From: Candidatus Odinarchaeota archaeon
GTDB taxonomy: Archaea; Asgardarchaeota; Odinarchaeia; Odinarchaeales; Odinarchaeaceae
Length of the DNA: 9,519 bases
Direction of reading: 5' to 3'
Assembly (NCBI GenBank): GCA_038826135.1
Contig: JAWBON010000046.1
Span: 1 to 9,519 of the forward strand
A program made the position numbers and the translations under genes. The notes beneath the pieces were generated by a model. The model saw nothing but the letters and a program-made list of their open reading frames with translations, did not search any database and was not told the origin of the DNA. This document shows, piece by piece, positions 321 through 7,303 of this stretch. Within the stretch, counting starts at the first letter, position 1. Each line of letters starts with the position of its first letter.

Positions 321-443
321 ACCCGTATTTTTAAGAATAAATTTAATATTTATGAACGATACCCTTATTATTGTGCATTTAATTCTTCAACTGTGAGTTT
401 ACATATTATTGTTTTTAAAAATATGAACGGTTAGATTGCTTTG

Positions 444-2495
444 ATGAAAGCTGTTGACGTTAACATCTCCGACGTGAATAGAGTTGTAATAGGTATTGAT
501 ATTCTTCCCGGCTCATCAGTTCACAGTATCAGCCGCCCTAAATATGCGATGGCGGTCCTATGCAACGGTGATTTTAAAGAGTTAAAAGATAAGGTCACTC
601 TTACAGATATCATATATCACGCTGTCAAATATAATGCGAGTATTTTAGCTGTTGATAACATTTTCGAGGTTGTCGCAAGCGGTAAGGAGGTTTACAGGCT
701 TCTTTTAAAACTTCCAGAAAACGTTAAACTAGTACAGGTTACCGGCGCACCGGGTTATTTAATGAAACCAGTTCACATTATAGCCAGCGAGCAGGGGTTA
801 GATGTTAAAGGCCATTTAAGCCCGTTAGAAAACGCTAAGATACTTGCAGTTTTAGCCTCGCGAAAAATCGGGTTTGAAATTAAAGCTTTTGAAAATGAAA
901 CAGTAGTGACTGTTTCAAGGAGCCGGAATCTTGGTCCAGGCGGCTCCAGCCAAACTAGGTTAAGACGGAGGCTTCACAGCTTTATTCTCAACGCCACCAG
1001 GGATATCGAATGTAAACTTAAGGAAGCGGGGGTTGAATATGAACTTATTACTAAAGAGTCTGATTTCGGCCTAGACAGCAGCAAATTTATCGTCAACGCT
1101 AATAAAAGCGATTTGAAAAAGATTATACGACAGGTGAAAGGACCTGATATAAAGGTGAGTATAAAACCTGTTAGAAGCAAGAGTATTTCATATCTTCCCC
1201 TATCCGGTGAGATGAGGACTTTCAACGCTGAGAGACGGCTTATTATAGGCGTTGACCCGGGTATCACTACAGGTTTAGCTATCATCGACTTGGATGGTAA
1301 TATTCTCGACTTGAAAAGTTCTAAGATGTTTTCTAAAGGAGAGGTTCTTAACTATATTAGAGAATACGGCTTACCGCTTATCTACGCCTGTGACACTATG
1401 CAGGTTCCCGAGTTGATAGTTAAATTAGCTAACGCAACCCGCTCGAAGATATTTTCACCTAGAAGAATAATGAGCATAGCCGAGAAGCAGGAGCTCGTGT
1501 ATAATTTCACCAGAGGGTGCATGGTTAAAATAACGAATTCGCATAAACGTGATGCACTAGCAGCGGCTGTTAAAGCATATCATTATTATAAACCGATTTT
1601 CGACAAGATTGATCTAAAACTCTCTAAGACACCTTATTTTATACCAGCGAATAAGGTTAAAGCGGAAGTTATAATGTGTGAAAAATCTATTTCCAAGGCT
1701 ATCACTGATCTTTCACCTAAAGATAAAACTGTTGAACAGGTAAGTGTAGATAAAACTGAAACCAAGCCAATATTATCCGAGGAAAACATTATAGTTAAAG
1801 AACTTAAAAAACAGGTGGCGAATCTCACAGCCTTCAACCAACAGCTTAAAAATGAGAATGAAATGCTCAGAGCTAAAATAAAGGAGCTTGAAGAACGGTC
1901 CAGCGCGTTATTAAACGAGGAAATGTTAAAGCAGAGACGTGAACGCGCTTTCCAGCTAAAAGAGCAGGAGATAATTAAACTAAGAGAACAGTTAAATGAG
2001 CTTAGAAATACGATAGGTTATCTGCAAAGCGAGATACATAAGCTGAAAAGTATAAAAACACTTGAAGCGCAGGGGAAAATCCAACCTGTGAAGATAGCCC
2101 GCGCATTCTCGAAAGAAGCTTTAGCTGAACTAGATGAAGTTTACGGGATACTTAAAAACGATATCATATTCTTAGAGGATGCTGCCGGAGGCGGTTCGGG
2201 AACAGCTGAAATGCTTATTGAGAGAGGTGTTAAAGCGATAATAGCGAGAAACGATATGTCTCATCTGGCTTTAGAGAAACTGATAACCGCAGAGATACCT
2301 GTAATACCCGTAGAAGCAGTGGATATGTCGAAATACAGTGAATTCTACGCTGTAGATAAGGATAAATTCGATAAAATCTATACCAGATTTCTAGACGATA
2401 TTCGTAGAAGAAAGACGGCTCTAACTGTTGAAAAACTTATTGAAATAATCAACGAGTATAGACAGAATAGGGTAACTGATACGGTAAACCCTTAG
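444..2495 (+). CDS. DUF460 (COG2433) archaeal protein with predicted RNase H-fold (RuvC/YqgF-like) nuclease domain and coiled coil
   Basis: Motifs GIDI, AVDNIFE, LVQVTG, VSRSRNLGPGGSSQ, IIGVDPGITTGLAIIDLDG and HKRDALAAA. A long heptad-rich segment runs from VKELKKQV to EIHKLK. ATG at 444, with TTG 441 as alternative. Confidence 0.85.
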   Translation: MKAVDVNISDVNRVVIGIDILPGSSVHSISRPKYAMAVLCNGDFKELKDKVTLTDIIYHAVKYNASILAVDNIFEVVASGKEVYRLLLKLPENVKLVQVTGAPGYLMKPVHIIASEQGLDVKGHLSPLENAKILAVLASRKIGFEIKAFENETVVTVSRSRNLGPGGSSQTRLRRRLHSFILNATRDIECKLKEAGVEYELITKESDFGLDSSKFIVNANKSDLKKIIRQVKGPDIKVSIKPVRSKSISYLPLSGEMRTFNAERRLIIGVDPGITTGLAIIDLDGNILDLKSSKMFSKGEVLNYIREYGLPLIYACDTMQVPELIVKLANATRSKIFSPRRIMSIAEKQELVYNFTRGCMVKITNSHKRDALAAAVKAYHYYKPIFDKIDLKLSKTPYFIPANKVKAEVIMCEKSISKAITDLSPKDKTVEQVSVDKTETKPILSEENIIVKELKKQVANLTAFNQQLKNENEMLRAKIKELEERSSALLNEEMLKQRRERAFQLKEQEIIKLREQLNELRNTIGYLQSEIHKLKSIKTLEAQGKIQPVKIARAFSKEALAELDEVYGILKNDIIFLEDAAGGGSGTAEMLIERGVKAIIARNDMSHLALEKLITAEIPVIPVEAVDMSKYSEFYAVDKDKFDKIYTRFLDDIRRRKTALTVEKLIEIINEYRQNRVTDTVNP

Positions 2496-4546: not shown

Positions 4547-4570
4547 TCATATAGAAAATTTTAAATATGA
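4547..4570. promoter_or_regulatory. 24-bp imperfect palindrome, putative ArsR operator
   Basis: TCATAT-ag-AAAATTTT-aa-ATATGA, with 10 of 12 symmetric pairs. It lies between the TATA box and the acr3 start. Confidence 0.5.
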
Positions 4571-4599
4571 TATTATATTATTTTAAACGGCGCATTAAT

Positions 4600-5670
4600 A
4601 TGAGTTCTTGCAAAGTCGGAGGGCTCAGCATTATTGATAGATTATTGAGCTTGTGGATAGCTGTAGGAATTATTATAGGCTTAGCACTCGGTAAACTAGC
4701 TCCCTGGCTTAATATCTATCTACAGTATGGTATACCAGTAGGATTATTCTTCATGATCTACCCTGCCATGGTTAAAATTGATTTAACCGATTTAAAAAAA
4801 GCGTTAAAAAGTAAAAGAGAGGTAGGGTTAGTTGCATTATTAAATTATGCCATTAACCCTTTTCTAGTTTATTTTATTGGTTTTATATTCTTCAGTCTAA
4901 TTTTCCCATCTTTAGGTTTATTAAATGCAGGAACAGCGAGCGCTTTATGGACTGGTCTTATACTTTTAGGAGTTGCTCCCTGTATAGCCATGGTGTTGGT
5001 GTGGACTGATTTAGCTCAGGGTAATGGCCCGCTAGGAATAGTTTTAATGGCTTGGAATTCAATAATTCAAATTATAACAACACCCTTATACATAGCATTA
5101 TTAGTAGGAACCTATGTTCCCATTAATGTTTTATCAATAGGGGAAAGCGTGTTACTATACCTTGGACTACCGCTTATAGCGGGGGCTATAACACGCAGAT
5201 TTGTTTTAAAAAGAAAAGGCGCATTATGGTTCGCTGAAAAATTGAATCCGCCTCTTGGAAGTTTACAGCTTCTTTCCCTATTATTCACCATGGTAGTCAT
5301 GTTCTCGCTTCAAGGTTACGTTATATTAGATAACCCGCAGCTTATATTATTCATGGTTCCGCCGCTAGTTATCTTCATATTCTTATTATATAATTCAGCG
5401 TATTTCCTATCTAGAAAAACAGGGTACAATTACTGTGACTCAACAACTATAGGATTCCACGCTACAGGAAGAAATTTTGAGTTGGCGATAGCGATAGCAA
5501 TCACAGCTTTCGCTTCAACCCCGTTAGTTGCAGTTTCAACTGTAATAGGCCCGCTAATAGAGATACCTGTAATGCTAACTTTAGTTAAAATCAGTCTTAG
5601 AAGAAGAAAAAGAGAGGAGCAAACACAAGTTTCAGAAAAAACATCTATAATAATTAAAACTAGTAATTAA
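4600..5670 (+). CDS. acr3: Acr3-family arsenite/antimonite efflux transporter
   Basis: Motifs LSIIDRLLSLW, MIYPAMVKID, GVAPCIAMVLVWT (essential Cys), RNFELAIA and GPLIEIPVML, with about 10 hydrophobic segments. ATG 4600 fits homologue length; ATG 4567 is an alternative. Confidence 0.95.
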   Translation: MSSCKVGGLSIIDRLLSLWIAVGIIIGLALGKLAPWLNIYLQYGIPVGLFFMIYPAMVKIDLTDLKKALKSKREVGLVALLNYAINPFLVYFIGFIFFSLIFPSLGLLNAGTASALWTGLILLGVAPCIAMVLVWTDLAQGNGPLGIVLMAWNSIIQIITTPLYIALLVGTYVPINVLSIGESVLLYLGLPLIAGAITRRFVLKRKGALWFAEKLNPPLGSLQLLSLLFTMVVMFSLQGYVILDNPQLILFMVPPLVIFIFLLYNSAYFLSRKTGYNYCDSTTIGFHATGRNFELAIAIAITAFASTPLVAVSTVIGPLIEIPVMLTLVKISLRRRKREEQTQVSEKTSIIIKTSN

Positions 5671-6038
5671 TGAATATCTAATAAAAATTTCAAAAATTTT
5701 CTACCATTATTTGAAAGCGCATAGTGTTTCCACCTCCACGCTACTCTAGAAGAGATCAGACCTGCTTCCTCTAACATTTGCAGGTGATGGGAAGTAGTGG
5801 GCTGAGATAAGCCCAGTAGCACATTAATTTCACACCCGCACAAATCTCTTTCAAACAGTAATAAAATTATTTTTAACCGGTTAATATTACTTACAGCTTT
5901 CAAAACGCTACTAATTTTTTTAACTCGCTCACTACTCAACTTGTTTCGGATATTCTTGAGTAAGAGCATATATGAAGATAAATCCATGTTCACACATTTT
6001 TCCCGAATTAAACGACTTAGCCTTTCCTGCTGCTCCAA
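5667..6038 (-). CDS. arsR: ArsR/SmtB-family metalloregulator with alpha-3 CxC site
   Basis: LKAVSNINRLKIILLL, DLCGCEI, LSQPTTSHHLQMLEEAGLI and WKHYAL. It is adjacent to acr3. TTG start at 6038; a downstream ATG start is possible. Confidence 0.9.
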   Translation of the reverse strand: MEQQERLSRLIREKCVNMDLSSYMLLLKNIRNKLSSERVKKISSVLKAVSNINRLKIILLLFERDLCGCEINVLLGLSQPTTSHHLQMLEEAGLISSRVAWRWKHYALSNNGRKFLKFLLDIH

Positions 6039-6522: not shown

Positions 6523-6951
6523 CTAGTGGATAGCTCGTTTTAATAATGCTTGATCAAACATTTTATACATTTCACTGTACTCTAAGTACTCTGATAAAAT
6601 ATTAAATTCATATTCTTGTCTCAAATCATCGCTTTCAGCGTAAATTAGTTTTCCATTCTTTATAACTTCATACTGAAATTCTATGGAACTATTATTTAAG
6701 GGTCTTACATCAAACTCAAACTTATAATTGAATTTCTTCTCTAACAGTCGACCCAGCTCCATAGCTTTTTTATAAAAGAGGTCTTCACCCATAACATTAC
6801 TGTTGAATAAAACAGCTACATCAATATCGTGAAAATCATTTCTTAAAATAAACGAGCCGTAAACATACACTAATCGAATACTCTTTATTAGAGACAGTTC
6901 GTTAGAAATAATTTCTAAAACATTATTTTTATCCAGAGATATTTGAACCAA
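6523..6951 (-). CDS. mntA: Minimal nucleotidyltransferase (MNT, MntA-like antitoxin)
   Basis: YVYGS-x8-DIDVAV, a third Asp in FDVRPLN, and GKLIY. It sits directly upstream of the HEPN remnant. TTG start. Confidence 0.9.
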   Translation of the reverse strand: MVQISLDKNNVLEIISNELSLIKSIRLVYVYGSFILRNDFHDIDVAVLFNSNVMGEDLFYKKAMELGRLLEKKFNYKFEFDVRPLNNSSIEFQYEVIKNGKLIYAESDDLRQEYEFNILSEYLEYSEMYKMFDQALLKRAIH

Positions 6952-7115
6952 CCTCCAATAATATTTGAATCATGTTTCAATAAAACTTAGATATTGATAA
7001 TATATAGAACAGCGGTTAATATAAAATATTTCAAATTAAAGAAAACTGGCTAATATAATGTAAACCGTATTTAACGTTATAAACACGTTTATGTAAGGGA
7101 TTTACAATAAAAGCT

Positions 7116-7220
7116 TGGAGCCTCGGGTGGGGTTTGAACCCACGATTTGTCTTAAAAGCGCAGGGCTTTTAATCCAACAGCTTACGAGGCTGCCGCTCCA
7201 CCGGGCTGAGCTACCGAGGC
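7116..7220 (-). tRNA. tRNA-Thr (anticodon CGU) with 28-nt intron and encoded CCA
   Basis: GCCTCGG/CCGAGGC acceptor stem, GCTC/GAGC D-stem, GCAGC-CT-CGT-AA-GCTGT anticodon arm, GTGGG-TTCAAAC-CCCAC T-arm, discriminator T, then CCA. The mature tRNA is 77 nt after removing 7146-7173. Confidence 0.96.
7146..7173 (-). other. Non-canonical tRNA intron at position 46/47 (variable loop), relaxed BHB (HBh') motif
   Basis: Central helix TGTT/GACA, 5' bulge GG^A, 3' bulge AA^T and inner helix TTAAAAGC/GCTTTTAA. Excision restores a normal 5-nt variable region UGGUC. Confidence 0.85.
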
Positions 7221-7303
7221 TTCTGTTAAAATTATGATTTTAAATATTCGAAGTTGATTCTACGATAAATATTTTATTATCTGTGAGTATAGGTATTTTG
7301 CTA

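Follow-up and report, generated by a model that had tools for sequence, protein, structure and literature searches.

A predicted 28-nt relaxed-motif intron at position 46/47 of tRNA-Thr(CGU) in an Odinarchaeota archaeon

The tRNA-Thr(CGU) gene and its surroundings

The window, that is the whole stretch of DNA analysed, comprises 9,519 nt from a genome of Candidatus Odinarchaeota archaeon and carries a gene for tRNA-Thr(CGU) on its minus strand together with several protein-coding genes. An SBF-family transporter gene (4567-5670, plus strand) ends against a convergent gene for an ArsR-type regulator (5667-6038, minus strand), and the pair resembles the arrangement of arsenite efflux with its regulator. 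Some 165 nt downstream of the tRNA, and likewise on the minus strand, is a small gene for a Pol-beta-type nucleotidyltransferase (6523-6951), whose product may be the MNT member of a HEPN/MNT pair. A protein of 684 aa encoded at 441-2495 (plus strand) contains the archaeal DUF460 domain, and its weak coiled-coil-like match to DivIC stayed below the cut-off. The tRNA gene and the signals on either side of it are the following.

7116..7220, minus strand: tRNA-Thr(CGU) gene, 105 nt, Rfam family RF00005, with CCA at 7118..7116 and the discriminator U at 7119
7237..7247, minus strand: putative promoter, an A/T-rich TATA-like box (AUAUUUAAAAU) lying roughly 17-27 nt upstream of the mature tRNA's 5' end
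7106..7112, minus strand: oligo-T run UUUUAUU, 4 nt past the CCA, putative terminator

The Rfam model RF00005 matched 7220..7119 on the minus strand with 54.7 bits, above its cut-off of 29, and the anticodon loop reads CUCGUAA, with the Thr anticodon CGU at 7186..7184. A first-pass annotation, made from the letters alone, had placed a tRNA-Thr(CGU) at 7116-7220; the same coordinates and anticodon were found here, the sequence words of that annotation referring to the minus strand. CCA is encoded directly 3' of the discriminator U, and the extent of the gene was therefore taken as 7220..7116. The stems of the cloverleaf are all intact, as are U73 and CCA. The anticodon stem is GCAGC/GCUGU and the T stem is GUGGG/CCCAC, and 33 nt separate the two. 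ARAGORN reported no tRNA in the window and, after deletion of 28 of these nucleotides, returned tRNA-Thr(cgt) with a product of 1-77. The intron mode of the same program proposed a 22-nt intron in the anticodon loop, which was rejected as wrongly placed.

Rfam found 29 tRNA genes in the 1.26-Mb genome, 22 of which span 89-144 nt, and among them the gene at 7220..7116 (minus strand) is the sole Thr gene with a CGU anticodon. It is 96-99% identical across three to four genomes of the same genus, with the stems and the splicing motif intact, and a DNA pattern scan located the gene with its insert also in 'Candidatus Odinarchaeia archaeon RPA3' and 'Candidatus Odinarchaeota archaeon J65_bin.29'. 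DNA of the locus is present in hot-spring metagenome runs. No RNA run containing the locus was listed. Contigs from four runs, among them a run that is labelled metatranscriptomic although it is probably DNA, were DNA contigs only and contained no joints, a result that is neutral as to expression and splicing; the match of non-Odin contigs in those four runs was limited to the conserved 5' half of the tRNA. The genome also encodes a eukaryote-like actin (354 bits against Pfam Actin). The first-pass annotation had left open whether the host was an Asgard archaeon; the assignment to Odinarchaeia, the actin and the occurrence of the same gene in Odinarchaeia and Odinarchaeota records identify it as one.

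Boundaries and splicing motif of the insert

The boundaries of the insert were fixed by homology. In the Asgard genomes G024 and G034 the Thr(CGU) gene is uninterrupted and reads GCAGCCUCGUAAGCUGUUGGUCGUGGG, and the sequence GCAGCCUCGUAAGCUGUUGGUCGUGGGUUCAA is likewise uninterrupted in the Thr(CGU) genes of these two genomes and of six metagenome contigs. The contigs came from a scan with a pattern tolerating 0-30 nt at the junction, which returned six, all from other organisms and all with zero nt at that point; they serve as compact relatives and are no evidence on the splicing of the target gene. Contig L121 carries a fully compact Thr(CGU) gene whose acceptor stem is identical to that of the target, and the variable loop is also UGGUC in the relatives G016 and G009. 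The gene is divided as follows.

7174..7220, minus strand: 5' exon (tRNA positions 1-46), ending in ...GCUGUUGG, where compact relatives read GCUGUUGGUCGUGGG uninterrupted
7146..7173, minus strand: predicted intron of 28 nt at 46/47, AUUAAAAGC-CCUGC-GCUUUUAAGACAAA, also carried by same-genus genomes, and lacking in compact Thr(CGU) genes
7116..7145, minus strand: 3' exon, comprising U47, C48, the T arm, the 3' strand of the acceptor, U73 and CCA

Deletion of 7173..7146 leaves a tRNA of 77 nt with the variable loop UGGUC, and this product is an exact match to the compact Thr(CGU) genes from the anticodon arm through the variable loop into the first part of the T arm. Since the product equals uninterrupted Thr(CGU) genes, the junction is 46/47 (G46|U47) without recourse to the splicing motif, and other 28-nt excisions cannot yield the same product because the bases at the boundaries differ. 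Removal of the insert restores a standard tRNA equal to that of uninterrupted relatives. The first-pass annotation had proposed both that these 28 nt are an insert and that a junction at 46/47 would give UGGUC, and the compact Asgard and metagenome genes confirm the two proposals. The motif around the junction is made up of these elements.

7176..7179, minus strand: exon strand UGUU of the central helix H, tRNA positions 41-44, three nt of which are shared with the anticodon stem; pairs 4/4 with GACA
7148..7151, minus strand: intron strand GACA of the central helix H, nt 3-6 of the intron counted from its 3' end
7173..7175, minus strand: bulge GG^A of the 5' splice site, cut predicted after the second nt
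7145..7147, minus strand: bulge AA^U of the 3' splice site, followed by one nt (C48) and then the T stem
7152..7172, minus strand: inner helix h', UUAAAAGC / GCUUUUAA, 8 bp and perfect, with the loop CCUGC at 7164..7160

According to the standard rule for a bulge-helix-bulge (BHB) structure, the cut follows the second nucleotide of a 3-nt bulge, and the 5' cut position predicted in this way agrees with the junction defined by homology. The exon-side (outer) helix amounts to 0 bp, and h' begins directly after the 5' bulge. With 8 bp in h' and none in h, the motif is classed as HBh' and not as full hBHBh'; it has a 4-bp central helix with two 3-nt bulges and at least one flanking helix. At the sequence level the insert has the features of an archaeal protein-spliced (BHB-type) intron of the relaxed HBh' form, and its excision is predicted. 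An HBh' motif with UGUU/GACA, the bulges GGA and AAU and an 8-bp inner helix had been recognized before in this very register, and the accompanying statement that the exon-side helix is missing and three anticodon-stem pairs must be displaced holds as well, the outer helix being 0 bp and H overlapping the anticodon stem by 3 nt.

When the 28 nt were shuffled with the boundaries kept as fixed by homology, a 4/4 central helix together with an inner helix of at least 4 bp arose in 0.09% of 200,000 sequences. The minimum free energy (MFE) fold of the gene is a full cloverleaf with the 8-bp hairpin in the insert (-41.3 kcal/mol, z -2.85). The splicing-competent fold was calculated with ViennaRNA at -34.4 versus -41.3 kcal/mol for the MFE fold at 37 C, and at -5.2 versus -6.7 kcal/mol at 80 C. 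Since the splicing fold is disfavoured in this model, the enzyme would have to capture a minority conformer. Among four genomes of the same genus, variation in the intron is confined to the hairpin loop and the pair that closes it.

Recurrence of the motif, predicted processing and other readings

The layout of GG^N ... AA^U, C and T stem was found in Thr-CGU, Thr-GGU, Thr-UGU, Lys-UUU and Lys-CUU of the genome, in the orthologs from a closed genome of the same genus (G002), and in three sister-family genes, Lys-CUU, Arg-CCU and Trp-CCA; the Thr and Lys genes of the genome repeat the order AA^U, C, T stem. The inserts of Ala-GGC and Val-UAC lie one nucleotide earlier, at 45/46, and those of Thr(CGU) and Thr(UGU) of the sister family are also best read as 45/46, while the sister-family Thr(GGU) is without a variable-loop insert. 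A loose BHB scan, which asked for a flanking helix of at least 3 bp, gave many chance hits per tRNA and was replaced by stricter, position-anchored scans. It was a scan demanding a 4/4 helix that first brought up the Lys, Arg and Trp examples, and independent boundaries are at hand for the Thr rows only. The genome's own tRNA-Trp (G000:C7:10150-10389, minus strand) has a long intron in the anticodon loop and an insert of about 30 nt in the variable region, for which no standard BHB boundaries leaving a 5-nt loop were found. In the tRNA-Lys(UUU) of the sister family (L091, G005:C21:9048-9188), the variable region appears to contain two hairpin inserts side by side, which may be nested or abutting introns.

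The central helix covaries with the anticodon stem of each tRNA. Ten distinct combinations were tabulated, all of them pairing 4/4, and the two-sided changes include U-A to C-G and G-C to A-U; over these comparisons, slid registers reached only 1.1-1.9 of 4. A register test blind to the helix was also carried out, in which distance to the T stem defined the 3' site and the inner helix defined the 5' site, the central helix being left unused. In 17 genes this test gave a mean of 3.8 of 4 pairs, against 1.3-1.9 of 4 when the register was slid by 1-3 nt, and 15 of the 17 related genes paired 4/4 in the 46/47 register. Such covariation counts overstate the support because the compared sequences are related and not independent; despite this kinship the direction of the result is clear.

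The genome encodes two EndA paralogs. The catalytic one matches its counterpart in the EndA of Aeropyrum pernix (3P1Z_B, E 2.7e-29) in an alignment that runs gap-free through the crenarchaea-specific loop; it has Lys at the Lys44 position and retains the Tyr and His motifs. Its gene is split over two contig ends (G000:C48:1-420, minus strand, and G000:C72:2-274, plus strand) whose translations overlap by 42 residues, and on that overlap contigs C48 and C72 probably join here. The second paralog, of 185 aa, is probably a structural subunit, because the catalytic His is replaced in it by Ala. By these sequence features the EndA is assigned to the alpha-beta type, its catalytic subunit having a specificity loop of the crenarchaeal kind. 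Typing of the EndA subunits had been suggested along with the intron, and it thus gave an alpha-beta enzyme with the loop linked to broad specificity and with Lys at the Lys44 position. RtcB was matched with 494.6 bits; it lies in a single ORF of 995 aa (G000:C16:2586-5357, plus strand), where the Pfam match is split into 1-50 and 49-426 by an insert of about 470 aa, which from the sequence is probably an intein. A predicted relaxed-motif endonuclease and an RNA ligase are accordingly both found among the encoded proteins.

In our reading, the 28 nt are very probably a protein-spliced HBh' intron at 46/47 of tRNA-Thr(CGU), cut by the alpha-beta EndA and joined by RtcB. A precursor of about 105 nt would be transcribed with the 28-nt intron in place. 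The cloverleaf would then open locally, so that positions 41-44 (UGUU) quit three pairs of the anticodon stem and pair with GACA. This would place GG^A in a 3-nt bulge between the central helix and the 8-bp intron hairpin, and AA^U in a short single-stranded link between the central helix and the T stem. The alpha-beta EndA would cut both sites, and RtcB would ligate G46 to U47, giving a tRNA of 77 nt with the ordinary loop UGGUC. We suggest that the adjacent T stem may replace the missing outer helix.

The folding calculation would by itself suit a different explanation, that of a genuine long variable arm of 33 nt retained in a mature, class-II-like tRNA-Thr. The MFE fold keeps the cloverleaf and sets the 8-bp hairpin (plus two weak pairs) at the site of a class II arm, and at 37 C it outscores the splicing fold by about 7 kcal/mol. 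However, the loop is the 5-nt UGGUC in uninterrupted Thr(CGU) genes whose flanks are identical, the hairpin sequence varies among the three Thr isoacceptors, and the conserved part is the 3' end of the insert, which is complementary to positions 41-44, a property that a variable arm does not need. Inserts of the same kind also occur in genes for tRNA-Lys, tRNA-Arg and tRNA-Trp. In archaea, a long arm serves as an identity element of the tRNAs for Leu and Ser; the present gene is of the Thr isotype, and the loop has 5 nt in its orthologs from other Asgard genomes and from metagenome contigs. A retained arm is very improbable in the light of these comparisons. An intron could also be cut at another place, for example by a 26-nt excision in a neighbouring register or at 45/46 as in the sister family, whose Thr(CGU) insert is best read in that position. 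The neighbouring register, GUUG [GA^U] ... AGAC [AA^A], offers 3 of 4 central pairs and an inner helix of 7 bp, but the 26-nt excision would leave the 7-nt loop UGGAAUC, a loop that none of the relatives has. The compact genes are recovered exactly by the 28-nt excision and by no other, sliding of the boundaries changes the product, and the 4/4 pairing at 46/47 in nearly all of the related genes likewise stands against other cuts, which we regard as highly unlikely.

Could the gene instead be a decaying or non-functional copy, with the insert as unprocessed debris? ARAGORN misses the gene, and wobble might allow ACG codons to be served by a UGU tRNA, both of which would be compatible with decay. 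Against it stand the position of the gene as the sole one with this anticodon among the Thr genes found, the high identity in same-genus genomes with stems and motif kept, the intact cloverleaf with U73 and CCA, and the TATA-like and oligo-T signals on either side; we consider the chance of decay to be minimal.

A similar intron was found in the tRNA-Trp(CCA) of the sister family (L069, about 105-150, G004:C80; also L070 and L071), where 30 nt interrupt the gene at 46/47; two further introns interrupt this Trp gene, a large one in the anticodon loop and one in the T loop. The Thr(CGU) intron and the sister Trp intron share the start AUUAA and the end UUAAGAC-AA, with an alignment z of 6.3 against shuffles, and a BLAST match of 80% between the two extends from the loop over the intron to the beginning of the T arm. 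At the level of sequence, this resemblance gives a hint of copying from one tRNA gene to another, and it is the only lead here that reaches past the known kind of intron. A wider version, in which the 46/47 introns would be one mobile class in Odinarchaeia copied between unrelated tRNA genes, is doubtful. The 46/47 introns share the bulges GG^A/AA^U and the single nucleotide before the T stem, and they extend over Thr, Lys, Arg and Trp genes in two families; copying would perhaps proceed by recombination across the conserved flank of loop and T arm. In this version the T stem would act as a stand-in outer helix. If the idea of a mobile class were true, it would add a route of intron arrival that is absent from the findings of the 2026 Asgard census.

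Relation to known introns

For annotation, the case matters in that ARAGORN misses the only Thr gene with a CGU anticodon found in the genome, and a reading by Rfam only could mistake the insert for an odd long arm. A clean, homology-bounded variable-loop HBh' intron is added for the Asgard class Odinarchaeia, in which the 46/47 site recurs over several tRNA identities. The first-pass annotation also expected that the locus would inform the ancestry of the eukaryotic endonuclease TSEN; by itself the finding changes nothing that is known there. Natural relaxed substrates with known junctions are useful for specificity tests in vitro, because the Asgard EndA is the nearest prokaryotic relative of TSEN.

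The arms of class II tRNAs (tRNA-Leu and tRNA-Ser; also the nematode nev-tRNAs, PMC4033280) differ from the Odinarchaeal insert in that they stay in the mature tRNA. They do not pair with the anticodon stem. For the Odinarchaeal insert, the compact relatives and the covariation point to a sequence that is removed.

Intron-rich tRNA genes are known from Asgard archaea. A tRNA survey of 2018 included Odinarchaeota LCB_4 and reported non-canonical Asgard introns, and the same study assigned to Asgard archaea an (alpha-beta)2 EndA with the L1 loop, a loop linked to the cleavage of relaxed motifs (Kaneta 2018, PMC5829648). Asgard tRNA genes with many non-canonical introns were described later (Valentin-Alvarado 2024, PMC11291895), the tRNA tables in the supplement of that paper covering only Atabeyarchaeia and Freyarchaeia. 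A census preprint of 2026 counts insertions in the variable region (10.64898/2026.10.13.758758), and Odinarchaeia are not mentioned in its main text. The present gene is like these published ones in phylum, splicing machinery, non-canonical intron position and partial blindness of tRNA finders to it; it is unlike them in that the counts and tables of the published papers concern Atabeyarchaeia, Freyarchaeia and Jordiarchaeia. No description of a 46/47 class common to Thr, Lys, Arg and Trp was found in the literature, where the phrase '46 and 47' was unproductive and the string '46/47' could not be searched. The novelty implied by the first-pass annotation is therefore to be divided: a variable-loop case from an Asgard archaeon is indeed added, but 45/46 introns, HBh' substrates and intron-rich Asgard tRNA genes had all been published.

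The closest biochemical counterpart is the pre-tRNA-Thr(UGU) of A. pernix, whose non-standard intron in the D-loop is cleaved by the (alpha-beta)2 EndA by means of the crenarchaea-specific loop; the role of this loop and of Lys44 was demonstrated for the A. pernix enzyme (Hirata 2011, PMC3241643). The two cases are alike in the tRNA identity, in the non-standard site of the intron and in a catalytic subunit that aligns without gaps, including the Lys44 position. They differ in that the intron lies here in the variable loop and there in the D-loop, and in that the A. pernix case has been proven biochemically while the Odinarchaeal one is read from sequence.

Non-canonical relaxed HBh' introns are known from Crenarchaeota and Thermoproteales (Marck and Grosjean 2003; Sugahara 2008; reviewed in PMC4090602). 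Non-canonical sites including 45/46 are listed in that review, and the 'variable region' is named in PMC3241643. Like those introns, the Odinarchaeal one is short, lies outside 37/38, and has a 4-bp central helix, 3-nt bulges and an intron-side helix only. As in the crenarchaeal variable-loop introns, part of the anticodon stem is needed for the central helix, and the EndA of the host is of the alpha-beta type with the specificity loop. In contrast to the crenarchaeal 45/46 introns, the Odinarchaeal junction lies one nucleotide further 3', at 46/47, and the host is an Asgard archaeon. The intron is thus an ordinary example of a known archaeal kind in a slightly shifted position.
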